Part shown: one piece after another, positions 16,364-62,022 of the stretch | Position numbering within the stretch: the stretch's first letter is position 1 | Layout of the letters: each line of letters begins with the position of its first letter | DNA from: Candidatus Nomurabacteria bacterium | GTDB lineage: Bacteria; Patescibacteriota; Minisyncoccia; Phycocordibacterales; UBA9973 | Direction: 5' to 3' | Assembly (NCBI GenBank): GCA_023898605.1 | Contig: CP060230.1 | Span: 3,944-67,943, forward strand | Length of the DNA stretch: 64,000 bases | Notes under the pieces: model-generated | The model's database searches: none | What the model saw: the letters and a program-made list of their open reading frames with translations, nothing else | What the model was told of the DNA's origin: nothing | Program-made: the position numbers and the translations under genes

Positions 16364-16693
16364 ATGGAACAAAATGATAAAGCTTTTCTAGAATACGTAG
16401 TAAAAGCACTGGTAGATAATCCAGATGATGTAAAAGTAGATAGAACAGTAGATGAAATGGGAGTACTCATAACTCTGTCAGTAAACAAAGACGATATGGG
16501 TAAGATAATCGGAAGACAAGGAAACACAGCAAAAGCTATAAGAACACTTCTAAGAGTTATCGGTATGAAAAATAACTCTAGAGTAAACCTAAAGATCAAT
16601 GAGCCAGAAGGTGGAATGGGAGGATCATCTATGGGCGGAGGAGATAACTCTTCAGTAGTAGATGAGGCAATGGAAGATCTAAAAGGAATCTAA
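16364..16693 (+). CDS. KH-domain RNA-binding protein (YlqC/UPF0109-like) downstream of rpsP
   Basis: The KH motif IGRQGNTAKAIRTLL and the conserved rpsP-KH gene order support the call. The start is at MEQNDKAF. Confidence 0.6.
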   Translation: MEQNDKAFLEYVVKALVDNPDDVKVDRTVDEMGVLITLSVNKDDMGKIIGRQGNTAKAIRTLLRVIGMKNNSRVNLKINEPEGGMGGSSMGGGDNSSVVDEAMEDLKGI

Positions 16694-16700
16694 ATAAACA

Positions 16701-16729
16701 AAAACCGGGTTAACCCGGTTTTTGTTTTT
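16701..16729 (+). terminator. rho-independent terminator
   Basis: An aaaaccgggttaacccggtttttgttttt hairpin is followed by a T-run. Confidence 0.6.
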
Positions 16730-16738
16730 GATATAATT

Positions 16739-34519: not shown

Positions 34520-35535
34520 TCCTCCAGCTACCCCTCAAGCAGAACACATTGCTGTTCTTTATAGTACACACTAGGAATTCTAAAATCAATCACTTCTCTC
34601 GGTCGGTCATTGATGAAGGAAAGAATACTTTCAATTTCTTCATCAGTTACGGTACTAACGTCTCTCTTCTTGGGTACAAAACATCTAATCCATCTATTGG
34701 TATTCTCTACCAGCCCCTTCTCCCATGAATGATAGGGATGTGTGAAGTATATGTTAGTATTTAATTGCTCTTCAATCACTTTCCAGTGATTGAAAGCGAT
34801 GTCATTGTCAGTGGTTATAGTTTTAAGAGATTGACCATTGAACATTTCAGAAAGCGCGTGATTGATAGTCACGTGTTTTCTGTTTGGGAGCCTCTTTATG
34901 AGAGTATGTTTAGTTAAGCGATCAGTCGCCACAAGAAGTGACCAGGTGCTTTTTTTAGAAACAATAAAATCTACCTCCCAGTGACCAACACCAACTAATA
35001 CGGGCCTATTTTTAATATATTTTCTATTATCTTTAGGGTTATCATATTTATACCTCTTCCTTCCACTCTTTTTCTTGTTCCATGACCAAAACAGGTACCT
35101 TTCTAGACATCTAGAGTCAATAAACTTATATATTGCTTTATCTGAACATGTTATTTCATGTTCTTTATCTAAATACCCACTTATTTGTTTAGGTGACCAT
35201 TTTTCAATAAGTTTCTTCTCCACAAACCCAACTAAGAATCTATCCATAGAGACTTTCAAGCACTGCCTCTTTGATCTCCATCTTTTAATATATGATCTAT
35301 GTTGGGCTTTATCTGCTATATATTCTCCATTTACTCTATTTCTGTTGACTTCACTACTTATAGTACTTGGGCTTCTACCTAATAGCATAGCTATATCTCT
35401 AATCTTTATGCTTCTACTCAATGATTTTTCAATCACAAATCTTTCCTCAAAAGAAAGATGTTTATATTGTTTTTTCTTTTTCATATGACAATAAACTTAA
35501 CTTATAAATTGTTCTGCTTCAAAGTTCGTTGGGGG
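34520..35535 (-). mobile_element. IS30-family insertion sequence
   Basis: The element contains the transposase ORF. Imperfect terminal inverted repeats share the AAGCAGAACA core at about 34538-34547 and about 35510-35519. The flanking cargo has higher GC. Confidence 0.6.
34528..35484 (-). CDS. IS30-family DDE transposase
   Basis: An N-terminal HTH (HLSFEERFVIEKSL..IRDIAMLLGRSPSTISSEVNRN) precedes the DDE core with HWEVDFIV and a C-terminal RPRE motif. Confidence 0.85.
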   Translation of the reverse strand: MKKKKQYKHLSFEERFVIEKSLSRSIKIRDIAMLLGRSPSTISSEVNRNRVNGEYIADKAQHRSYIKRWRSKRQCLKVSMDRFLVGFVEKKLIEKWSPKQISGYLDKEHEITCSDKAIYKFIDSRCLERYLFWSWNKKKSGRKRYKYDNPKDNRKYIKNRPVLVGVGHWEVDFIVSKKSTWSLLVATDRLTKHTLIKRLPNRKHVTINHALSEMFNGQSLKTITTDNDIAFNHWKVIEEQLNTNIYFTHPYHSWEKGLVENTNRWIRCFVPKKRDVSTVTDEEIESILSFINDRPREVIDFRIPSVYYKEQQCVLLEG

Positions 35536-36130: not shown

Positions 36131-36164
36131 AAATCCGCTGGCATACCAGCGGATTTTTTATTTT
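36131..36164 (+). terminator. rho-independent terminator
   Basis: An aaatccgctgg-cata-ccagcggatttttt hairpin is followed by attttt. Confidence 0.65.
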
Positions 36165-36165
36165 C

Positions 36166-36241
36166 TGGAGCCGAAGGCGAGACTCGAACTCGCGACCTAC
36201 CGCTTACAAGGCGGTTGCTCTACCAACTGAGCTACTTCGGC
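36166..36241 (-). tRNA. tRNA-Thr (anticodon UGU), CCA encoded
   Basis: The minus-strand sequence GCCGAAGTAGCTCAGTTGGTAGAGCAACCGCCTTGTAAGCGGTAGGTCGCGAGTTCGAGTCTCGCCTTCGGCTCCA has a 7-bp acceptor stem, a D-loop with AGTTGGTA, the anticodon loop CTTGTAA and a T-loop with GTTCGAGTC. Confidence 0.85.
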
Positions 36242-36294
36242 GTATTGTTTTGTAGGATGATATTATCGTTTTTTGACCAAATAATCAAGTCTTT

Positions 36295-54733: not shown

Positions 54734-55711
54734 ATGCTCAAAGTTGCAGTGCTCCGCGGTGGGCCAAACGAAAATTATGATATATCTATAGCTTCAGGCG
54801 AAAGCATAATTTCTGCACTAAAAACTCACAGTGATATAGAGGCCCAAGATCTTTTCTTTACAAAAGACATGAATCTTTTGTGGAAAGGTAGACCGCTTAG
54901 GATAGAAGATCTTCACAAACACTTTGATCTTGTTTGGAACAATCTTCACGGTTTTTATGGAGAAGATGGAAAAATACAAACCTTGTTTGAAAACTTTGGT
55001 GTAAAACACACTGGTCCTGGGGCCTGTGCTTCGGCTTCTGCGTTCCATAAAAGAATCGCCAAAGACGTTGCCAAAAATCACTCTGTCAAAACTCCAGAAT
55101 ATGTTTTGATTGATTTCTCTCCATACTTCATAGATCAAGATGAAGAAGAAATAGTTGCCAAAGAAACAGACAAGGTTTTCAGAAAGATAGCTCCACCTTG
55201 GATTGTGAAGCCTCTTTCAGATAGTTTTTCTCGTGGAGTTGTACTGGCTAGAACGTTGCCAGAGCTTGCTATCTCGATAGCTCGTAGCTATGAATCTGGA
55301 GAAGACATAATGGTAGAAGAGTATATCGAAGGATCAGAGTTTTCTGTCGGAGTTATAGATGGATATAGGGGAGAGAACTACTACATACTTCCTCCAGTCA
55401 AAAGAACTTCTTCTGGGAAGCACTTGTCTCACGAAGACGTGTGTAGTGGAATCAGTTGCCATAGTTTCAAGACTATAGATGAAAATAGTAAGTCAGAACT
55501 TATGAGAGTTGCACGTGTCGTGCATGATGCACTAGGTATGAAAGATTATTCTTCTAGTGATTTTATAGTTCATCCAAAGAAAGGAGTTTATTACCTTGAA
55601 ACAGATGCCTTGCCAGATTTGCGAGAAAGTTCTCCGTTTCGAGTTGGGTTAGATTCGGTGGGTGGAACAATCGAAGACTTCGTAAAACATATAGTTTCTA
55701 GAAAAAGATAA
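54734..55711 (+). CDS. ddl: D-alanine--D-alanine ligase
   Basis: It has the ATP-grasp fold with an N-terminal MLKVAVLRGGPNENYDISIASG and a C-terminal D-Ala-D-Ala ligase domain. Confidence 0.75.
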   Translation: MLKVAVLRGGPNENYDISIASGESIISALKTHSDIEAQDLFFTKDMNLLWKGRPLRIEDLHKHFDLVWNNLHGFYGEDGKIQTLFENFGVKHTGPGACASASAFHKRIAKDVAKNHSVKTPEYVLIDFSPYFIDQDEEEIVAKETDKVFRKIAPPWIVKPLSDSFSRGVVLARTLPELAISIARSYESGEDIMVEEYIEGSEFSVGVIDGYRGENYYILPPVKRTSSGKHLSHEDVCSGISCHSFKTIDENSKSELMRVARVVHDALGMKDYSSSDFIVHPKKGVYYLETDALPDLRESSPFRVGLDSVGGTIEDFVKHIVSRKR

Positions 55712-55737
55712 AAAACCCAGATGATTTCTGGGTTTAT
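55711..55737 (+). terminator. hairpin terminator after ddl
   Basis: An aaaaacccagatgatttctgggttt hairpin has a weak T-tract. Confidence 0.4.
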
Positions 55738-55775
55738 ACAATTATTTAATTTTTTAATAGATGATCTTTTGACGT

Positions 55776-56090
55776 CTATTTTTTGTGAATTTCTTCCGCG
55801 ATTCGATGCGCTTCTTTAATTTTTTCCTCTGTAAAAAATAAGGTTGGTACAGACCTACTATTGCTTACATGAATAGCGTTTGGTTCAAATTTTAATATGT
55901 TTATGCAATTAAAACAAATAATATGATTACATTCCGCACGAGGGTGTGAGCCCTTATCTGAATCATAACCAATGATACAGCAGGTGGCGTAAGGTGGTAT
56001 AGGATCGTTACACCTTGCGCAAGTACCGTTCTCATTTTTCTTCTTTTTTTGAGGAAAGACCGAAAAGAAAGACGATAATATTTTTTTCAT
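55776..56090 (-). CDS. small Cys-rich zinc-ribbon protein (hypothetical)
   Basis: The 104-aa ORF has CARC...CC...ECNHIICFNC, i.e. two CxxC-type pairs (treble-clef/zinc-ribbon-like), and a basic N-terminus. It is co-directional with and downstream of the OLD nuclease gene, across a 470-bp structured spacer. Confidence 0.4.
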   Translation of the reverse strand: MKKILSSFFSVFPQKKKKNENGTCARCNDPIPPYATCCIIGYDSDKGSHPRAECNHIICFNCINILKFEPNAIHVSNSRSVPTLFFTEEKIKEAHRIAEEIHKK

Positions 56091-56214
56091 GATAGATCAT
56101 TTGATTTCTTTCATATTATAAAAGTTCTTATACTTTTGCAACCTAAAAATAAAAATCTTTTTATTGATAAAGGTAACATTATTTGTTGCTCTGAAAATGA
56201 AATAGTACTTTATG

Positions 56215-56334
56215 GGTAATGACGTCGGCAGTAACTATACTGCCCTAACCGGGAGCAATGCTCCACGGCGCACGTATGACCGCATAACTCATAGTACATT
56301 TCACCCCGTCATGAGAAACATGGCGGGTTTTTTA
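56215..56334 (+). ncRNA. candidate small structured RNA (~115 nt) ending at an intrinsic terminator, antisense to the OLD and Zn-ribbon transcription direction
   Basis: Several stable hairpins (ggcagta-acta-tactgcc, ggagc-aat-gctcc) and a terminal ccccgtcatg-agaaa-catggcggg + T6 terminator. There is a possible weak promoter at about 56163-56210. It is non-coding and GC-richer than the flanks. No rfam-like motif was recognised. Confidence 0.3.
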
Positions 56335-56479
56335 TATTTAGGCAGTGTCGAGCACTGCGTAGCTCTTTTTAAAAAAGAGCGAAGCGGTGGACCTCAGTAT
56401 ATTTGATTTTAACCAGATTGTTAAGGAGATTAAGGCTTGGTGGGACCTTAAGGACCTTGTAATAGTAACTTGATATTGC

Positions 56480-56560
56480 TTTAGGGGTATGGGGGTACCC
56501 CCAGAAGTCGACCCCCGAGGGGGTTAGAGATAGCCGTATAGGGGTCGATGGACAAAAACA
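56480..56560. repeat. GC-rich compound palindromic element immediately 3' of the OLD nuclease stop
   Basis: gggggtaccccc, cccccgaggggg and the outer tcgacccc...ggggtcga inverted repeats, in a ~35% GC genome. Confidence 0.5.
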
Positions 56561-56569
56561 AGTGGTTTT

Positions 56570-58219
56570 TTAGTCTGAGAAAATATTTTCAATAATATCT
56601 TTCAGCCTTTGCGGTATAGCGGTTGAATCTAAGTCTTTAAATGTCTTGAAAGCGTTAAAAGGTTTGGTCCCACTTGGGATGGTTATACCTGCGGTGCTAC
56701 ATACTTGTTCAAAATCAGGGTCAAGAATTTCTGTCTTTCCAATATCTCTTGAATCTGTCACTCCTTGTTCAATATTACTATTAGAATCAGTACTACCTGC
56801 ATCTTTGTCGTAAATCACAATGTACGGTATACGGAAAGCATTTAAAACTTTTATGAAAAATGGTATTGCCTCTTTTCCGCCACACTCAACAATGGTAATG
56901 CCATAATCATAAAATAAATACTCTGGATTTATATTCCCAGCAATTACAGGAAGCACGACTTTTTCTGTATCTCCCTCTACTAATACAACTTTGCGTCCAA
57001 AAAACATCTCATTTCTTTCAGGGTCAAATTCAGTGAGAAGTTTAAAATTTTTCTTTTCTTCTGCTTGAGGGAAAATCTCATCAGTATACTGAATAATTTT
57101 GGTACCAGTGGCCATATCTTTTTTAACAGCAATGCCAATAGATTGGTATTCAGTCATATCAATGAAGAAGCTTGAGTGGGTAGTGAAAATAACTTGGTCA
57201 CTTTCTGAAATTTCCTTGAGCAGAGCAAACATTGACCTCTGCATTTGTGGATGAAGATATAGTTCTGGTTCTTCTATTCCGAATATTAAAGCTTTTGCTT
57301 TCTCGCCACGTTCTTTCTTTAGGAGTTCAGCATATGCTCTAAATATCACAAATATAACAGAGCGTTGTAAGCCATGTCCTTTATCTTCTATGGCAGTAAA
57401 CACTCCGTCATTGACCATAATTCGTGTTCCAGACTGGAACACTTCCTTAATACTAGGAGGTGTTACATCAAGCTTTATACTCGTTCCTCTCATGTGTGCA
57501 GATAATTTCTCACTAAGCGTTGTCTCAAAGTCTTTAAGCTGAGTAATTCTTCCGTCCTGCTCTTCATTTTCACCCATGAGCAACTTATTAAATTCTTCAT
57601 TCACTCTCTTAAGTTCATTGTTCTCTAGAACACTACTCAACATCGTGTTGACAATCTGACCGAATCTTGATTTTTCAGTAATCTTTGCTTCCTCTTTGAT
57701 ATCTTTTACAGCTGGCACATACAAGAAATCAGGCAAATACCCGTTTGCGACAGTTGCCCAACCAAAAGGTTTTGGTTTCCAATAGTAGTGTTTCTCTGCT
57801 GATGTGAATGGGTCAATTTCTTCTTTTTCAAGAATTTCAACAGCATCTTTTTTATCTTTATCATTCTCAAACTTATCTCCAAGAATCACTGCTGAAAAAA
57901 GGTGGTTATCATCTCCTTCGAAATAGTATTCTTTTTTCAGAATTACTGTTTGTTCGTCATCTAATAGGTATTTTGAAAATGTTTTCTTTGCATCATCATT
58001 TAAATCATTGAACCAAATCTGTATAACTATAGGTTGTTTAGTGTCGTTGAAATAATCAACTGGTAGTTTTTGTGTACTACTAAAAAATAGGTCTAGAGAT
58101 TTTAATACATTAGATTTACCAGCATTGTTTTCTCCTATAAAAGCCATTAGATTGTCGAAATCTATCCTTTCAGTCTTAAATGATTTGAAATTTTTTATAG
58201 ATACTCTAGTGATTTTCAT
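56570..58219 (-). CDS. OLD-family (overcoming lysogenization defect) ATP-dependent endonuclease with N-terminal ABC-type ATPase and C-terminal Toprim; stand-alone (class 1-like)
   Basis: The Walker A is GENNAGKSN (..FKSF..), the ABC signature-like motif is KGHGLQRSVIF, the Walker B/D-loop is LIFGIEEPELYLHP and the H-loop is TTHS. The Toprim domain has VVLVEGDTEKVVL (catalytic Glu) and IVIYDKDAGS (DxD). The ATG is at 58219; the ORF track used an upstream TTG. Confidence 0.75.
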   Translation of the reverse strand: MKITRVSIKNFKSFKTERIDFDNLMAFIGENNAGKSNVLKSLDLFFSSTQKLPVDYFNDTKQPIVIQIWFNDLNDDAKKTFSKYLLDDEQTVILKKEYYFEGDDNHLFSAVILGDKFENDKDKKDAVEILEKEEIDPFTSAEKHYYWKPKPFGWATVANGYLPDFLYVPAVKDIKEEAKITEKSRFGQIVNTMLSSVLENNELKRVNEEFNKLLMGENEEQDGRITQLKDFETTLSEKLSAHMRGTSIKLDVTPPSIKEVFQSGTRIMVNDGVFTAIEDKGHGLQRSVIFVIFRAYAELLKKERGEKAKALIFGIEEPELYLHPQMQRSMFALLKEISESDQVIFTTHSSFFIDMTEYQSIGIAVKKDMATGTKIIQYTDEIFPQAEEKKNFKLLTEFDPERNEMFFGRKVVLVEGDTEKVVLPVIAGNINPEYLFYDYGITIVECGGKEAIPFFIKVLNAFRIPYIVIYDKDAGSTDSNSNIEQGVTDSRDIGKTEILDPDFEQVCSTAGITIPSGTKPFNAFKTFKDLDSTAIPQRLKDIIENIFSD

Positions 58220-58375
58220 GGTTTTCTTTAGGAATAGGTCTATATACAATATCGACCAGTGTTATCAATTTTGTAGCTTGTTCTAAAGCATCTTGGTCCG
58301 ACAAGTCTGTGCCAATTTCTTTTTTATAAAAGTTAGCATCCTGTCAGGAATACATTGCTTCAAATTCAAATTTTG

Positions 58376-58448
58376 TGGACCTGAGGAGATTTGAACTCCT
58401 GACCTTTCGCTTGCAAAGCGACTGCTCTACCAACTGAGCTACAGGCCC
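58376..58448 (-). tRNA. tRNA-Ala (anticodon UGC), CCA not encoded
   Basis: The minus-strand sequence GGGCCTGTAGCTCAGTTGGTAGAGCAGTCGCTTTGCAAGCGAAAGGTCAGGAGTTCAAATCTCCTCAGGTCCA has a 7-bp acceptor stem, the anticodon loop TTTGCAA, a T-loop with GTTCAAATC, and the G3:U70-compatible GGGCC...GGTCC acceptor typical of tRNA-Ala. Confidence 0.85.
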
Positions 58449-58453
58449 AAAAT

Positions 58454-58553
58454 ATTTTTTAGTTATTAAACTGAGCCCCGACGTTCTACTTTGTAGAAGT
58501 GCGGGGCCCCGTACCTCTCTTGCAAGAGAGCGTCGGGGCTACAGGCCCAAAAT
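58454..58553. repeat. partial tandem duplication of the tRNA-Ala 5' end, split by a 61-bp GC-rich palindromic (four-way-junction-like) insert
   Basis: The 16-bp direct repeat gctacaggcccaaaat occurs at 58438-58453 and 58538-58553. In the second copy the tRNA 5' segment aactgagc|ctacaggccc is split at 58477-58537 by cccgacg...cgtcgggg, which has 8-bp terminal inverted repeats and three internal hairpins. Confidence 0.6.
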
Positions 58554-58766
58554 TAACTAAAAACTTAAAACTCAAAATTCATAACTTTATATCATGTACT
58601 GTTCGGACCCTGTCCGCCTAATTCTGGCGGAAACTGAGCACGGTGAGATACTGCTAATATTTCAAGTTTATACTGATCCTTTCCGGGGTCTAGCCCTCAC
58701 AAAACCAGTACGGAATATATTAGGACAAAATCCAAACAAAAGCAACCCCGATTTTGGTAAAAAAAT

Positions 58767-58794
58767 GGACAAAAGCTGAAAAATATCTATAATG
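58767..58794 (+). promoter_or_regulatory. sigma70-like promoter (TGGACA-16-TATAAT) for the small basic peptide gene
   Basis: tggacaaaagctgaaaaatatctataat lies immediately upstream of the ATG at 58803. Confidence 0.35.
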
Positions 58795-58802
58795 CTATCT
58801 AT

Positions 58803-58883
58803 ATGAATAAAAAGAAAAAAGTGGTTAGAAAGAAGAAAGCCAAGAAAGTAGAAAAGAAACAAGTTACTGCAAGACACAGATAG
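58803..58883 (+). CDS. candidate 26-aa highly basic peptide
   Basis: The ORF encodes MNKKKKVVRKKKAKKVEKKQVTARHR. It has a consensus-like promoter directly upstream and no Shine-Dalgarno sequence, so it may be leaderless. It is below the ORF-track size cutoff. Confidence 0.2.
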   Translation: MNKKKKVVRKKKAKKVEKKQVTARHR

Positions 58884-59046
58884 TCTTGATTTTTGGCAAT
58901 ATTTTGTTAGAATCAGGATTGTAAGTACGAGGCAGTGCGAAGAGCATAGCTTTTTATTTCGCCTTATACTTCGTCTGGTCGAAAAAATCAGTTTTGCCTT
59001 TGTGGCAAAACTGCTCCATTAATAAATGATAATTTGAAATATTATT

Positions 59047-59199
59047 ATGGACGATATGAACAACAATGTTGTAAACACAGCAGCAGAAGGAACAGAGACT
59101 ACAGAAGAAGAACAAATGAACGCTGCTCCTATGATGGATGATGCTACAGACGAAACATCATCTGAAGAAGAAACTACAGAAGAAGGCGAGATGGCCTAA
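59047..59199 (+). CDS. candidate 50-aa highly acidic peptide
   Basis: The ORF encodes MDDMNNNVVNTAAEGTETTEEEQMNAAPMMDDATDETSSEEETTEEGEMA. It is followed 12 nt later by a strong intrinsic terminator, with a promoter-like TTGATT-16-TAGAAT at about 58886-58913. Confidence 0.3.
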   Translation: MDDMNNNVVNTAAEGTETTEEEQMNAAPMMDDATDETSSEEETTEEGEMA

Positions 59200-59211
59200 A
59201 TTCTCAATCAA

Positions 59212-59242
59212 AAAGCCCTAGATTTTCTCTAGGGCTTTTTGA
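59212..59242 (+). terminator. rho-independent terminator
   Basis: An aaaagccctaga-ttttct-ctagggcttttt hairpin is followed by a T-run. Confidence 0.65.
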
Positions 59243-59264
59243 TTTTGTATAGTAAAATCTGTTT

Positions 59265-60014
59265 GTGAATCAAAAAGAAAAAATAATTATATATGGCCGA
59301 AACGCTGTAGAAGAAACCCTAGATATAAAACCAGCATCTATAAGGGAGATTTTTTTGTATGACGGTGCAGAGGAGTCATTCCAGAAAAGGATCAGAGCTA
59401 TAGCCTCGAAACATAGTATCAGGGTTAGTGGTGCGTCAAAAAGCTTCATGACAAAAAAGTTGGGAGATGTTGTACACCAGGGTGTGATGGCGGTTCTAGA
59501 TATGGAAATCGTTAACTTCGGAGATTGGTACGAGAAAGCAAGAGAAAGCGAAAGAAAAGACCCAATAGTTATAATCGACAGCCTAGAAGATGTTGGAAAT
59601 GTCGGAGCGATAGTTAGAAGCGCAGCAGCGTTTGGAATAAAAAATATTTTTCTAGAAAAGAAAAAAGATATTTCAGGATTTATTTCTAGGATTTTCAAAT
59701 CTTCTGCTGGTCAGGTAAATAGACAAAACATAGTTTTCATAGGTAACACTAACGAAACACTTCGCAAACTAAAAGACATAGGATACTGGAGTGTTGCATT
59801 AGATATGGATGGCGAAACAAAACTTTCAGAAATGACTTTTGATATGCCTACTGTTTTTGTTGTTGGGAAAGAAGGTGAAGGAGTCCCTCCGAAAACCATG
59901 GAGATTTGTGACTTTAGAGTAAAGATACCTATGAAAGGTGGCGTAGAGTCACTAAACGCTTCTGTTTCTATTGGAATCGCTTTTTATGAATGGTCACTAG
60001 ATAACTTGAAATAG
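59265..60014 (+). CDS. rlmB: SpoU/TrmH-family 23S rRNA 2'-O-ribose methyltransferase (RlmB-like)
   Basis: An N-terminal substrate-binding domain (IIYGRNAVEE) is followed by the SPOUT catalytic motifs (LEDVGNVGAIVRSAAAFG; VVGKEGEGV; ESLNASVS). Confidence 0.7.
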   Translation: MNQKEKIIIYGRNAVEETLDIKPASIREIFLYDGAEESFQKRIRAIASKHSIRVSGASKSFMTKKLGDVVHQGVMAVLDMEIVNFGDWYEKARESERKDPIVIIDSLEDVGNVGAIVRSAAAFGIKNIFLEKKKDISGFISRIFKSSAGQVNRQNIVFIGNTNETLRKLKDIGYWSVALDMDGETKLSEMTFDMPTVFVVGKEGEGVPPKTMEICDFRVKIPMKGGVESLNASVSIGIAFYEWSLDNLK

Positions 60015-60016
60015 TT

Positions 60017-61303
60017 ATGGATAAACTTATCGATCAAAAAAGCTATCAGAAAAAACTACTACTCAACTTGAAGGTTGGTTCTTTTTTGGCGAGAAGGGAG
60101 GTTAGGAGATCAAATCCATGGACGACTATTTTGATTATATTTGTGATGACACTAACGTTCTTGAACCTAGTTGTTGTTTCTGGAATCTTGGTTGGACTTA
60201 TCGAAGGATCAGAAGAAGCAAACAGAGAAAGATACACTAGTGATGTGATACTTTCTCCTCTTCCAGAAAGAGAATACATACGAGACTCAACTCGTATAGA
60301 AAAGGAAATCAAGAAAGCTCCAGGTTACGCCATGAGTACTTCTAGATATGTTTTGTCAGGAACAGTTGTTTCCAATTACAAAGACACTTTGAGAAAAGAC
60401 GAGAAGAATAACATAAGCGGTGGATCTATAGTCGGTATCAACCCCGAACTCGAAGACCAGATAACACACATATCAGAAACAGTGATAGAGGGGGAATATC
60501 TGACATCTTCTGATTCTGACAAGATCATGATTGGAAAAGATCTTTTGTACCAATACACTCCGATTGATTCCCCAGGATTTTCGGTTTTGAAAGATGTCGG
60601 TGTTGGTTCTAGAGTTTTGGTTAGAGTTGGAGACAGTGAAAGAGAAATGTTCGTCAAAGGTATATTGAAGAGTAAAGCTGGAGAAGTCGACGCTAGGATT
60701 TTCATGACAGCAAGTGAGGCTAGAAAACTCGGAGGACGAAGCGACCTAAACGTAGACGAGATAGCGGTAGAACTCGCACCAGGATATAGCGTAGAGGCGT
60801 TTAGAGATTATCTTTTAGAAAAAGGTTTTGGTGACAATGCTAGGATTCAGACATGGGAAGACGCTCAGCCGAAATTCTTGAAAGATATCAAAACAACATT
60901 TGCTCTTCTCGGTAACATGATTTCTTCTATCGGACTTGTTGTTGCGAGTATCACAATATTTATCGTTATATTCGTAAACGCTATTACTCGTAGAAGATAT
61001 ATAGGTATCTTGAAAGGTGTTGGGGTAACAAAGGGTGCGATAGAGATATCGTATGTTTTACAAGCACTTTTCTACGCTATTTCTGGAGTTCTCATAGGAA
61101 CACTACTTGTATTTTTGGTTTTGAAGCCTGCTATATATGCGAACCCTATAGATTTTCCATTTTCAGACGGTATATTGGTTGCAACTGCACTCGGTACTTT
61201 TTTCCGAGCGGTGATTTTGTTCTTGGCGACACTTGTTGCGGGATACATACCAGCTTATATAGTTATCAAGCAAAACACACTAGACGCGATATTGGGAAGA
61301 TAA
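60017..61303 (+). CDS. ABC transporter permease, FtsX/MacB-like
   Basis: An N-terminal TM, a large periplasmic domain, and a C-terminal FtsX-type 3-TM bundle with the GVTKG..LF motif. Confidence 0.7.
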   Translation: MDKLIDQKSYQKKLLLNLKVGSFLARREVRRSNPWTTILIIFVMTLTFLNLVVVSGILVGLIEGSEEANRERYTSDVILSPLPEREYIRDSTRIEKEIKKAPGYAMSTSRYVLSGTVVSNYKDTLRKDEKNNISGGSIVGINPELEDQITHISETVIEGEYLTSSDSDKIMIGKDLLYQYTPIDSPGFSVLKDVGVGSRVLVRVGDSEREMFVKGILKSKAGEVDARIFMTASEARKLGGRSDLNVDEIAVELAPGYSVEAFRDYLLEKGFGDNARIQTWEDAQPKFLKDIKTTFALLGNMISSIGLVVASITIFIVIFVNAITRRRYIGILKGVGVTKGAIEISYVLQALFYAISGVLIGTLLVFLVLKPAIYANPIDFPFSDGILVATALGTFFRAVILFLATLVAGYIPAYIVIKQNTLDAILGR

Positions 61304-61347
61304 TTTACTAAAATATACTAAAATCTAATTAACTAAATTTATAAAAC

Positions 61348-62022
61348 ATGATCAAAGCAGACAACATAACAAGAGTTTTCAAAAACGGACAAAACGAACT
61401 CTGGGCACTCAAGGGTATATCTTTCGAAGTAAAAGAAGGTGAGTATCTTGTTATAACAGGAAGAAGTGGATCTGGTAAGTCTACACTGCTGTATCAGCTC
61501 GGTCTTTTAGATTATCCGACAGATGGTGATGTGTATATCGCTGGTGTTCCAACTGGAAACCTAGATAGTGAAACCAGAACAAGAGTTAGACTAGAATCGC
61601 TAGGATATGTTTTTCAAGATTATGCGATACTTCCATCTCTTACTGCACTTGAAAACGTGATGGTCCCACTACTCATGCAAGGCAAAAGCGAAGAGTTTGC
61701 AAAACAAAAGGCCGAGATAGCTCTCGGTAAGGTTGGTCTTGGTGACAGGATGGATCACACACCAGCCAAACTTTCTGGAGGACAACAACAAAGAGTCGCT
61801 ATCGCAAGAGCGCTCGCACACGAACCAAAAATCATTTTTGCCGACGAACCAACAGCAAACCTAGACTCAGAAACAGCAGAGTCGGTACTAGATGTTTTTG
61901 GAGATTTGCACAAAAGCGGACAAACTATAATCATGGTTACTCACGAAGAAGAGTATGCAAAAAGAGCTGACAGAGTCATAACTTTGTCAGACGGAGAAAT
62001 CGTTGAAGATAAAAAGGTTTAA
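61348..62022 (+). CDS. ABC transporter ATP-binding protein (MacB/LolD-type)
   Basis: It has the Walker A GRSGSGKST, the Q-loop, the signature LSGGQQQRVAIARAL, the Walker B IIFADEPT and the H-loop. Confidence 0.85.
   Translation: MIKADNITRVFKNGQNELWALKGISFEVKEGEYLVITGRSGSGKSTLLYQLGLLDYPTDGDVYIAGVPTGNLDSETRTRVRLESLGYVFQDYAILPSLTALENVMVPLLMQGKSEEFAKQKAEIALGKVGLGDRMDHTPAKLSGGQQQRVAIARALAHEPKIIFADEPTANLDSETAESVLDVFGDLHKSGQTIIMVTHEEEYAKRADRVITLSDGEIVEDKKV

Follow-up and report, generated by a model that had tools for sequence, protein, structure and literature searches.

The stretch of DNA analysed here (64,000 nucleotides, referred to as the window) comes from a Candidatus Nomurabacteria genome. 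Within it, a gap of 479 bp (56091-56569) separates the open reading frame of a Zn-ribbon protein (55776-56090) from that of an OLD-family nuclease (56570-58219/58249), both of which are encoded on the minus strand. A homologue search with the Zn-ribbon protein, intended as a handle on synteny, returned only the protein itself, making it an orphan. The OLD protein matched the Pfam families AAA_15 and OLD-like_TOPRIM and the PADLOC model 'Old' (9.1e-88), and is 100% identical to P0001. As in class 1 OLD systems, one polypeptide combines an ABC ATPase at the N terminus with a Toprim domain at the C terminus, and no helicase, reverse transcriptase or AriB partner accompanies it; the gene lies between a tRNA and non-coding DNA. 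The features of the locus are listed in Table 1.

Table 1. Features of the gap and of the adjoining DNA up to the intact tRNA-Ala gene (positions in the window).
Feature	Position	Strand	Description
AT-rich divergent upstream region	56091-56197		21.5% GC; from the Zn-ribbon gene start to the structured element
Element A	56198-56303	+	three-way-junction fold, 106 nt; strand assigned from the terminator only
Intrinsic terminator	56305-56333	+	9-bp stem, 5-nt loop, T6
Ancestral tRNA-Ala 3' trailer, two hairpins	56342-56358 and 56362-56380	-	nhmmer alignment with L013
Displaced, decayed copy of tRNA-Ala, T-loop to 3' end	56387-56406	-	att-type direct repeat, far boundary of the island
Island end arm	56407-56571		GGACCT and TTAAGG short repeats (56421-56458); six GGGGT in palindromes (56484-56548)
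OLD nuclease, cargo	56570-58219	-	class-1-like, single gene, 549 aa, ABC ATPase and Toprim
Conserved block directly upstream of the cargo gene	58225-58273	-	in both island versions; L032 13395-13443 at 95.9%
Intact tRNA-Ala(UGC), integration target	58375-58448	-	follows Ddl in L012, L013 and L016; present in L032

The initial annotation described the spacer as having no open reading frame. One frame of at least 30 amino acids is in fact present within the gap, with 64 codons on the plus strand (56212-56406). A gene caller predicted it in the related strain locus L031, and the two strain substitutions that fall within it are one synonymous change and one Ile to Met. However, among 1.84 billion representatives the product had no relative except its own strain variant, it had no Pfam match, and the exact product is not on record. 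In addition, the frame runs over the intrinsic terminator, the non-coding tRNA trailer that is conserved in L013, and the tRNA fragment, and no ribosome-binding site was seen by eye. A frame that has no homologue or Pfam match and that overruns these three features leaves the gap effectively non-coding, so that the earlier description stands in substance if not to the letter, and the chance that a 64-aa protein is encoded here is close to nil.

The description of the spacer as much GC-richer than its surroundings also needs some adjustment. The GC content of 56198-56569 is 45.7%, compared with 36.7% for the window. The difference is clear against the adjacent AT-rich intergenic DNA (56091-56197, 21.5%), but only moderate against the flanking genes, which range from 30 to 43%. 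The spacer is a composite, the right half consisting of the scar and end-piece of an island and the left half of native DNA with a candidate RNA.

The tRNA-Ala repeat and the exchangeable cargo

The displaced tRNA-Ala copy matches the 3' end of the intact gene (58375-58394) at 17 of 20 positions. This was the sole match of at least 15/20 on either strand of the 64 kb, and none of 30 shuffles reached 17/20. The repeat is short and imperfect. It adjoins a conserved tRNA trailer: positions 56320-56409 align with 9090-9006 of L013, a distant relative, which comprise the 3' end of tRNA-Ala and its trailer (nhmmer, E = 1.4e-7), and in L013 this trailer directly adjoins tRNA-Ala. The two sequences hardly differ over the first trailer hairpin and the CGTAGCT linker, and the second hairpin differs by two compensated pairs (GCTCTTTTT/AAAAAGAGC in the window, GCTTGTTT/AAACAAGC in L013). 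A decayed whole tRNA at 56387-56460 was considered and rejected, as ARAGORN predicted none and the 5' acceptor strand was absent on reading the sequence. A search for a conspecific empty site found none.

Between the tRNA copy and the OLD gene lies the end arm, which is rich in palindromes. All of the palindromes listed in the initial annotation were located, one of them with its 'tta' loop slightly mis-transcribed: GCTCTTTTT-A-AAAAAGAGC (56362-56380, the second trailer hairpin), GGGGGTACCCCC (56491-56502), CCCCCGAGGGGG (56513-56524), and TCGACCCC...GGGGTCGA (56509-56548). The motif GGGGT occurs six times in about 60 bp of the arm, the densest cluster in the window, where its frequency is 0.7 per kb. 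The GGGGTACCCC and CCCCCGNGGGGG palindromes are shared with the DNA downstream of the nearest OLD homologue, which is 82% identical and lies on another CPR contig (L011). That locus also has the AATCAAAT...GTCCAC end, and the similarity stops exactly at ...GTCCAC, although the match is weak (nhmmer E = 0.046) and comes from a single contig. When the GGGGTACCCC...CCCCCGNGGGGG pair was searched for in the viral_contigs collection, the two matches were in GC-rich phage contigs without tRNAs and were set aside as chance. The palindromes and short repeats of the arm may be protein-binding sites. The suggestion that the spacer held recombination sites is supported for its right-hand 180 bp, which contain the tRNA-Ala direct repeat and the cargo-linked palindromic arm.

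Comparison with closely related strains showed that the cargo of this locus varies. L031, L032, and L033 retain the whole spacer and carry SET and Shedu genes instead of OLD; in L032, positions 56572-58224 are swapped for genes of the SET (PF00856) and SduA_C (PF14082) families. The differences between strains are concentrated in 56461-58374, while the outer flanks are nearly unchanged (99.7% identity on the left, two differences in approximately 890 nt on the right). Within the arm, L032 and L033 have 13 differences in 56461-56571 (111 nt, about 12% diverged) and the palindromes are kept; a G deletion at 56491, for instance, is paired with C56502T. The left breakpoint lies at about 56461 in L032 and L033 and at about 56551 in L031, and this variation among strains suggests homologous exchange. 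Upstream of the OLD ATG, homology with the SET/Shedu strains returns after 6 nt, with the conserved block listed in Table 1, whose counterpart in L032 sits upstream of the Shedu gene start. This block probably contains a promoter and 5' UTR (TTGATA-16-TATATA, by eye); because the scan tool called no promoter there, we infer the promoter role.

Searches for the same arrangement elsewhere gave little. The genome_contigs and metagenome_contigs collections do not include the host genome or its close relatives; single-protein scans of the former with Ddl and OLD, and of the latter with Ddl, returned nothing. A search of metagenome_contigs with an OLD alignment found 10 loci, in which the regions downstream of OLD were unrelated to the spacer, and the same alignment found nothing in viral_contigs.

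Taken together, the spacer is very probably the junction of native DNA with a small genomic island inserted in the 3' end of tRNA-Ala. A direct repeat bounds the island, the original tRNA flank, homologous to the trailer of tRNA-Ala in a relative, lies beyond it, and the content is variable, OLD being replaced by SET and Shedu with diverged arms between conserved flanks. Read along the minus strand, the proposed order runs from tRNA-Ala (58448-58375) through the upstream block (58273-58225), OLD (58219-56570), and the arm (56571-56407) to the displaced tRNA copy (56406-56387), which would be followed by the original trailer (56380-56342) and native lineage-specific DNA. Insertion would have been by a tyrosine integrase acting at the T-loop sublocation, and the cargo would now be swapped by homologous recombination. 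The island is about 2 kb in length, with OLD as the sole long open reading frame in 56407-58374 and with only SET and SduA in the L032 version. No integrase or excisionase was found in these 2 kb, so the island cannot be autonomous and is treated as a remnant or mini-island rather than as an active element. The apparently exotic, hairpin-dense spacer is thus mostly ordinary biology, the scar of an integration at a tRNA gene.

The structured element and its terminator

The left half of the spacer contains the hairpin-dense stretch noted in the initial annotation, which was found to be a closed three-way junction (element A, Table 1). A stem of roughly 20 bp closes the fold around a single-stranded junction and two inner hairpins, GGCAGTA-ACTA-TACTGCC and GGGAGC-AAT-GCTCC. 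The minimum free energy of 56195-56340 is -55.9 kcal/mol (z = -6.89), and none of 200 shuffles folded as well. Among the six best-folding 110-nt segments of the 64 kb are one over the element and its terminator (56221-56330) and one over the arm palindromes (56476-56585). The stability of element A is nearly equal on the two strands (-40.6 kcal/mol for plus, -41.2 for minus) and there are almost no G.U pairs, so that the pairing suits a palindrome at the DNA level as well as an RNA. A strand call from folding energy was dropped because of this symmetry.

The textbook intrinsic terminator reported on the strand opposite the flanking genes was recovered independently by a terminator scan. Its sequence is CCCGTCATG-AGAAA-CATGGCGGG followed by T6, with nine pairs, six of them G-C, according to the scan tool, and it begins 1 nt past the fold of element A. 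A G.U pair in its stem becomes A.C on the minus strand (-14.7 kcal/mol on plus, -11.3 on minus) and the T run is present on the plus strand only; the terminator is accordingly predicted to be functional in form on the plus strand only. L013 has a hairpin in the same relative position, which appears to be bidirectional because it is bounded by an A run and a T run. With the terminator included, the candidate RNA is about 136-140 nt in length, rather than the approximately 115 nt first estimated.

Any promoter of the Zn-ribbon gene or of element A must fall in 56091-56197. By eye, a promoter-like sequence for the Zn-ribbon gene is present on the minus strand at about 56141-56113 (TTGCAA-15/17-TATAAT/TAATAT), and on the plus strand there is a weak -10-like CATTAT at 56177-56182, which reads TATTAT in L031, L032, and L033. 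No plus-strand promoter upstream of element A passed a sigma-70 scan, the consensus of which may not be that of a CPR host.

Database searches did not place element A in any known family. The Rfam scan proposed in the initial annotation found no housekeeping RNA (tmRNA, SRP, or 6S) in the spacer: at the gathering score, Rfam 15 identified two tRNAs in the whole window and nothing in the spacer, and with permissive filters at E ≤ 10, 55900-56800 gave only chance-level matches (E ≥ 0.5). Scans of 58440-59270 and of loci L011, L012, L013, and L016 yielded only tRNAs and chance matches. A covariance model of the candidate (R1), searched over 169 kb made up of the window plus 14 loci, recovered only itself. 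Searches with nhmmer found no homologues of element A outside strains that are 98-100% identical, a 30-nt exact pattern from the candidate core had no match in viral_contigs, and 56100-56600 had no blastn match in a phage collection. In the strains, element A has two substitutions in L031 and L032 (T56217C and A56286G) and is unchanged in L033. Both substitutions fall at a single internal loop; they do not cleanly compensate each other, and they slightly weaken the fold, from -55.9 to -54.8 kcal/mol. Duplexes predicted by RNAduplex between the candidate and 50 translation-start regions in the window were implausible, long-looped, and without an outlier, and were uninformative. Some OLD proteins are retron effectors; a retron ncRNA was considered here and rejected, there being no reverse transcriptase nearby.

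These observations leave a putative lineage-specific orphan small RNA as the likeliest identity for element A, though the odds that it is a real plus-strand RNA are put at a little under even. Such an RNA would be an independent transcript of about 140 nt belonging to the native flank, with no tie to OLD. It would be transcribed on the plus strand from the AT-rich region between it and the divergent Zn-ribbon gene, end at its own terminator, and might use the unpaired junction (CGCACGUAUGACCGC) to act in trans. As the candidate is well delimited (56198-56333, plus strand), it should be quick to check in metatranscriptomes.

Alternative readings of the spacer

The initial annotation had suggested that the structured RNA was a cis-antisense or trans-acting regulator of OLD, perhaps of an antitoxin-like kind. 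Proteins of the OLD family are toxic abortive-infection effectors, and P2 Old is a tRNase (PMC12445682), a toxicity that was counted in favor of an antitoxin-like RNA, as were the strong fold and separate terminator of a candidate lying only 237 nt from the 3' end of OLD. That same terminator, however, ends at 56333 and would halt transcription 237 nt short of the OLD 3' end (56570), so the candidate does not overlap OLD and is not antisense to it. Element A is also located beyond the att repeat at the island boundary, was retained in L031-L033, where SET and Shedu fill the slot of OLD, and was not found beside OLD homologues of 49-82% identity at approximately 20 loci (L002-L011 and L018-L025); nor did the candidate contain tandem repeats like those of type III antitoxins. 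An element that is kept without OLD and is missing beside OLD homologues elsewhere does not support an OLD-controlling RNA. The strain comparison has already largely refuted this proposal, which is now highly improbable, and the proposed link between the RNA candidate and OLD drops out of the annotation. It is unlikely, too, that element A is read on the minus strand, either as a long 5' leader of the Zn-ribbon gene or as the remnant of a former tRNA-Ala co-transcript. The minus-strand fold is as stable as that of the plus strand (z = -5.79), ancestral tRNA-Ala transcription ran in that direction, and the highest-scoring promoter-like site in the region (TTAACA-17-TATACT, 10/12; 56424-56396), located in the decayed tRNA fragment, points through element A toward the Zn-ribbon gene. 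Yet the number of promoter-like sites is that expected by chance (4, versus 4.3 in shuffles), and the nearer Zn-ribbon promoter-like sequence is downstream of element A and would leave it outside the mRNA. The terminator, moreover, is specific to the plus strand by its G.U pair and T run, 107 nt of DNA with 21% GC separate the element from the Zn-ribbon start codon, and no riboswitch or leader family matched it. A stronger competitor, possible although still well short of probable, is that element A is no gene for a functional RNA but a nested palindrome at the level of DNA, such as what is left of an older mobile element or of an att arm, or else a MITE-like insertion, at a long-lived tRNA-Ala hotspot, with the terminator serving to insulate convergent transcription. 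Consistent with this are the strand-symmetric and almost entirely Watson-Crick pairing, terminal inverted repeats that are imperfect and some 20-30 nt long, and two further nested GC-rich palindromic modules flanking tRNA-Ala (56484-56548 and 58474-58540), as well as the fact that three of the six best-folding segments of the 64 kb are at the tRNA-Ala locus. Element A is also missing in L012, L013, and L016, whose regions downstream of tRNA-Ala all differ, and the neighboring Zn-ribbon gene is likewise an orphan. Against it, no second copy of element A was found across the window and the loci searched (169 kb) and no target-site duplication is visible, while the placement of a canonical terminator 1 nt from the fold is that of many small RNA genes and GC enrichment amid AT-rich intergenic DNA is a classic signal of non-coding RNA.

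The arm raises the separate question of how the cargo is exchanged, and its GC-rich palindromes could be folded-DNA sites comparable to integron attC sites, at which defence cassettes are swapped by site-specific rather than homologous recombination. As in attC sites, the palindromes are imperfect, GC-rich, and placed at one end of an exchangeable gene to which they are linked, having been kept while the arm diverged by about 12% between cargo types. Furthermore, the segment exchanged in L031 runs from the OLD stop codon to a point 6 nt upstream of the ATG, and one shared upstream block serves either cargo. In contrast to integrons, the island has no integron-type or other recombinase, no R''/R' core motifs (RYYYAAC/GTTRRRY) were seen on reading 56480-56550, and the left breakpoints vary (~56461 versus ~56551), as homologous exchange predicts. 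Between the window and L011, the palindromes keep their sequence instead of covarying, which suits sequence-specific protein-binding sites at least equally. Site-specific exchange is considered very unlikely. A further idea, that the two arms (58225-58273 and 56407-56571) and the att repeat together make an integrase-less 'expression slot' at which CPR bacteria exchange single defence cassettes (OLD, or Shedu and SET), with the 140-nt RNA as a new CPR-specific component that might guide or regulate it, is unlikely. An integration scar at tRNA-Ala adjoining a lineage-specific, independent small RNA is the best explanation of the spacer as a whole, with a probability of roughly 0.6.

Comparison with known systems

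The candidate RNA resembles small RNAs with Rho-independent termination in its compact fold, the canonical terminator directly after it, its non-coding character, and a GC content well above that of the AT-rich intergenic surroundings. It differs from them in having neither a promoter call nor homologues, and in pairing that is strand-symmetric. The neighboring gene is comparable to P2 Old of class 1, being a single ATPase and Toprim protein for which the best PADLOC model is 'Old'; an RNA partner for OLD is not known, and none is supported here.

The island itself is most similar to the islands and prophage remnants found at tRNA 3' ends, in which an intact tRNA marks one end, a partial copy from the T-loop to the 3' end marks the other, and the tRNA trailer follows. 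In those systems, as here, the cargo varies by strain and includes defence genes. Attachment sites from the T-loop to the 3' end are a described sublocation of tRNA-targeting integrases (bioRxiv 10.1101/2020.11.02.365908), and mycobacteriophage Ms6 uses the T-loop of tRNA-Ala (PMC1762012). The present island departs from this pattern in its size (~2 kb, one gene), in the lack of an integrase or excisionase, in its decayed repeat (17/20), and in its CPR host, and the varying breakpoints suggest that its cargo is exchanged by homologous recombination.

Defence-gene hotspots consist of swappable cargo between conserved flanks, as in P2/P4-like elements and integrative hotspots. The frame here is made of short non-coding arms beside a tRNA rather than phage genes, and two cargo versions have been seen. 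The likeness is in the arrangement: a single position is occupied by OLD or by Shedu and SET in sister strains, and the borders, including the upstream block, are conserved. This analysis records a tRNA-Ala-linked defence slot in an uncultivated CPR (Nomurabacteria) lineage, which makes the slot useful for studying how immunity genes are gained and swapped in episymbionts with reduced genomes.

Composition of the spacer and its flanking genes

The 479-bp gap between the Zn-ribbon and OLD nuclease genes had a GC content of 45.7% over positions 56198-56569, against 36.7% in the window and 21.5% in the AT-rich stretch 56091-56197. The raised GC, the fold with its terminator, and every palindrome listed in the initial annotation were found. 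A search of 1.84 billion representatives gave the only ORF within the gap no relative beyond its own strain variant. Even with the threshold relaxed to E ≤ 10, Rfam 15 gave no match in the spacer, and it gave only two tRNAs in the whole window, so that SRP, 6S, tmRNA, known riboswitches and known ribozymes were ruled out, and with them the housekeeping identity that had been raised as an objection. Other very stable 110-nt folds in the window lay at 36136-36245 (-42.7 kcal/mol, containing tRNA-Thr), 34771-34880 (-40.3) and 16621-16730 (-39.7).

Features in and around the spacer (window positions)
Feature	Position	Strand	Remark
tRNA-Thr	36166-36241	-	
Zn-ribbon ORF	55776-56090	-	
Zn-ribbon/OLD gap	56091-56569		
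Three-way junction, closed	56198-56303	+	RNA folding
Canonical intrinsic terminator	56305-56327 + T6	+	1 nt past the fold
Sole ORF in gap	56212-56406		64 codons
Original tRNA-Ala trailer	56342-56380		
att repeat	56387-56406		17/20 identical to tRNA-Ala 3' end, 58375-58394
Promoter-like match	56396-56424	-	10/12
Island end arm	56407-56571		
OLD ORF	56570-58219	-	ATG at 58219; ORF lister extends to TTG at 58249
Common upstream block	58225-58273		
Indel segment	58274-58374		101 nt
tRNA-Ala(UGC)	58375-58448	-	
Direct repeat GCTACAGGCCCAAAAT	58438-58453 and 58538-58553		exact, 16 nt
Gene-free gap	58449-59040		roughly 600 bp
Nested palindrome	58474-58540		GC-rich, about 62 nt
GC-richer non-coding stretch	58560-58745	-	about 180 nt

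The cysteine-rich Zn-ribbon ORF is an orphan, with no homolog outside this species in 5.8 billion clusters. A 2-nt indel at 55778 sets it apart from the strains L001, L028-L031 and L032 and alters the C-terminus (104 vs 112 aa; region 55773-55809).

Probable integration scars at tRNA-Ala

Recombination sites, one of the two roles initially proposed, were supported for the right half of the spacer. The att repeat (GTGGACCTCAGTATATTTGA) covers tRNA-Ala from T-loop to acceptor end; it was the sole match of at least 15/20 on either strand of the window, and none of 30 shuffles attained 17/20. Such a T-loop sublocation has been described for tRNA-targeting integrases (10.1101/2020.11.02.365908), and Ms6 at tRNA-Ala serves as an example (PMC1762012). 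Positions 56320-56386 were homologous to DNA directly 3' of tRNA-Ala in the distant relative L013 (nhmmer E = 1.4e-7), with hairpin 1 and the CGTAGCT linker nearly identical and two compensated pair differences in hairpin 2. Together, the repeat and this homology point to the original trailer of tRNA-Ala and, beside it, the displaced and decayed 3' end of the gene. Approximately 2 kb has been inserted between the present tRNA-Ala and its old 3' end and trailer.

In the window tRNA-Ala is oriented toward Ddl, 2.7 kb off (54734-58448). The distant relatives L012, L013 and L016 keep the UvrC-Ddl pair and carry tRNA-Ala(UGC) after Ddl on the same strand, at only about 27 nt in L012 and L016. This difference indicates that an inversion or rearrangement took place at the tRNA-Ala hotspot.

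The end arm contained six copies of GGGGT in about 60 bp, the densest cluster of the 64 kb (0.7 per kb in the window). In L011, which has the closest OLD homolog from another CPR organism (82% identical), the GGGGTACCCC and CCCCCGNGGGGG palindromes likewise lay downstream of OLD, and about 100-150 nt past them similarity ended exactly at AATCAAAT-N8-GTCCAC. Because both arms share AATCAAAT while tRNA-Ala itself reads GTTCAAAT, the arm is probably element-derived up to a T-loop crossover. The arm of sister strains L032 and L033 was about 12% diverged yet kept the palindromes; for instance, loss of a G at 56491 coincided with C56502T, and a change at 56518 fell in a loop. The palindromes thus appear to belong to the island's end, and their conservation, together with short GGACCT and TTAAGG repeats, makes an att arm with putative protein-binding sites the most economical reading.

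On the 5' side of tRNA-Ala, the upstream GCTACAGGCCCAAAAT copy repeats about the first 17 nt of the tRNA (acceptor, D-stem, D-loop), and this tRNA copy is broken after nt 11 by the nested palindrome. Of all 110-nt segments in the 64 kb, that containing this palindrome folded most stably (-51 kcal/mol). Judged from sequence, 58449-58560 is a putative second scar; islands integrating at tRNA 5' ends via the D-loop have been described (10.1101/2020.11.02.365908). The non-coding stretch farther upstream folded well (z = -4.6 for 58449-58760), had no Rfam match at E ≤ 5 and was nearly identical in L032.

Exchangeable defense cargo

Contigs of three sister strains, L031, L032 (GCA_020428735.1) and L033, were 99.1-99.7% identical to the window up to 56571, and in the slot of OLD they encode a SET-domain protein and a Shedu (SduA_C) protein. 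Homology restarted at 58225, which is 6 nt before the OLD start codon (ATG), and tRNA-Ala followed. The common block, upstream of OLD in the window and of Shedu in the SET plus Shedu version, reads TTGATA-16-TATATA by eye; the promoter scan made no call there. Differences between L032 and the window clustered between the att repeat and tRNA-Ala (13 in 56461-56571, 2/49 in the upstream block, and the 101-nt indel), while the left flank was 99.7% identical and 58375-59265 had only two differences. The left breakpoint varied, at about 56461 in L032 and L033 and about 56551 in L031, which fits homologous exchange and not one fixed site.

The indel segment separates the common upstream block from the 3' end of the tRNA; it is missing from L032, and the near-repeats TCAATTTTG and TCAAATTTTG border it. 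Identity to L032 was about 99.7-99.8% up to 59265 and about 95% beyond (SpoU, FtsX and ABC genes; 59266-62021), a mosaic that would indicate recombination between fairly diverged Nomurabacteria lineages. In L032 (11854-13372) the SET-domain gene (108 aa) is convergent with the Shedu gene (393 aa) and starts about 10 nt past TGATAAAAT, an extended -10-like sequence so near that it suggests a leaderless mRNA.

The OLD protein was 100% identical to a protein from a Candidatus Nomurabacteria (Patescibacteria/CPR) MAG whose contig measures 619 kb; Ddl of the nearest other lineages was only about 50% identical, and neither this genome nor its close relatives are included in the genome and JGI metagenome collections. 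OLD is class-1-like, a single gene (PADLOC 'Old', 9.1e-88). P2 Old was recently shown to be a tRNase (PMC12445682), which makes the adjacency to a tRNA look suggestive, but that adjacency is explained by integration. Members of the OLD subfamily (L002-L011, L018-L025) were 58-82% identical across Nomura-, Adler-, Kaiser- and Levybacteria and usually had type III or IIG restriction-modification genes immediately upstream. OLD neighbored a tyrosine integrase and a DUF488 gene in two loci, L002 and L008, the second of which had tRNA genes alongside as well. These contexts suggest horizontal spread on islands. Small ORFs directly follow the OLD stop in some loci (L011 5765-5915, e.g. MIPQKTLNEYKRIYKEKTGEDLSDQEALEQ...; L008 6679-7154) and are lacking in the window. 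OLD homologs other than that of L011 (49-76% identity) had restriction-modification or defense neighborhoods, some beside integrases and tRNAs, and the DNA downstream of them was unrelated to the spacer.

The RNA candidate and known systems

The candidate falls within lineage-specific native DNA beyond the island and adjoins the orphan Zn-ribbon gene. A terminated RNA of ~115 nt had been proposed; the terminator is present in the sequence, and the length with terminator is about 136-140 nt. The MFE of 56195-56340 was -55.9 kcal/mol (z = -6.89). The candidate was identical in L033 and carried only T56217C and A56286G in L031 and L032; these changes border one internal loop, are not cleanly compensatory and shift the MFE from -55.9 to -54.8 kcal/mol. 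It was not found in L012, L013, L016 or any OLD locus (nhmmer; covariance model made from the candidate), and the window held no second copy. Persistence in strains without OLD and absence from all OLD loci, along with a position outside the island, speak against the proposed RNA controlling OLD, which we regard as very improbable.

A genuine + strand sRNA is our leading reading, at a probability of about 0.45. The terminator abuts the fold and is proper in form only on the + strand (G.U pair and T run; -14.7 vs -11.3 kcal/mol), and the element is GC-rich inside AT-rich intergenic DNA. However, the promoter scan passed no + strand site, and the two strands of the element fold about equally well (-40.6 vs -41.2), G.U pairs being nearly absent; that the element is instead a leader or co-transcript on the - strand seems unlikely. 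Two further nested GC-rich palindromic modules surround the same tRNA-Ala, making a DNA-level origin plausible, and a DNA-level relic is accordingly conceivable, though we favor it less than the sRNA. The three mismatches between the att fragment and the tRNA (CTCCT -> ATACT) create a -10-like TATACT on the - strand; the resulting TTAACA-17-TATACT is the best promoter-like match in 55500-57000 and may have arisen by chance.

The main value of the analysis lies in describing a tRNA-Ala-linked defense slot in a CPR bacterium and in sharply delimiting one orphan RNA candidate. The left half of the spacer resembles a terminated sRNA gene and is a candidate member of that class. The right half differs from known tRNA-targeted islands in that neither version, OLD or SET plus Shedu, contained an integrase, which points to a non-autonomous remnant or a slot kept up by homologous recombination; it shares with the scars of such islands the repeat, the original flank and the variable content.
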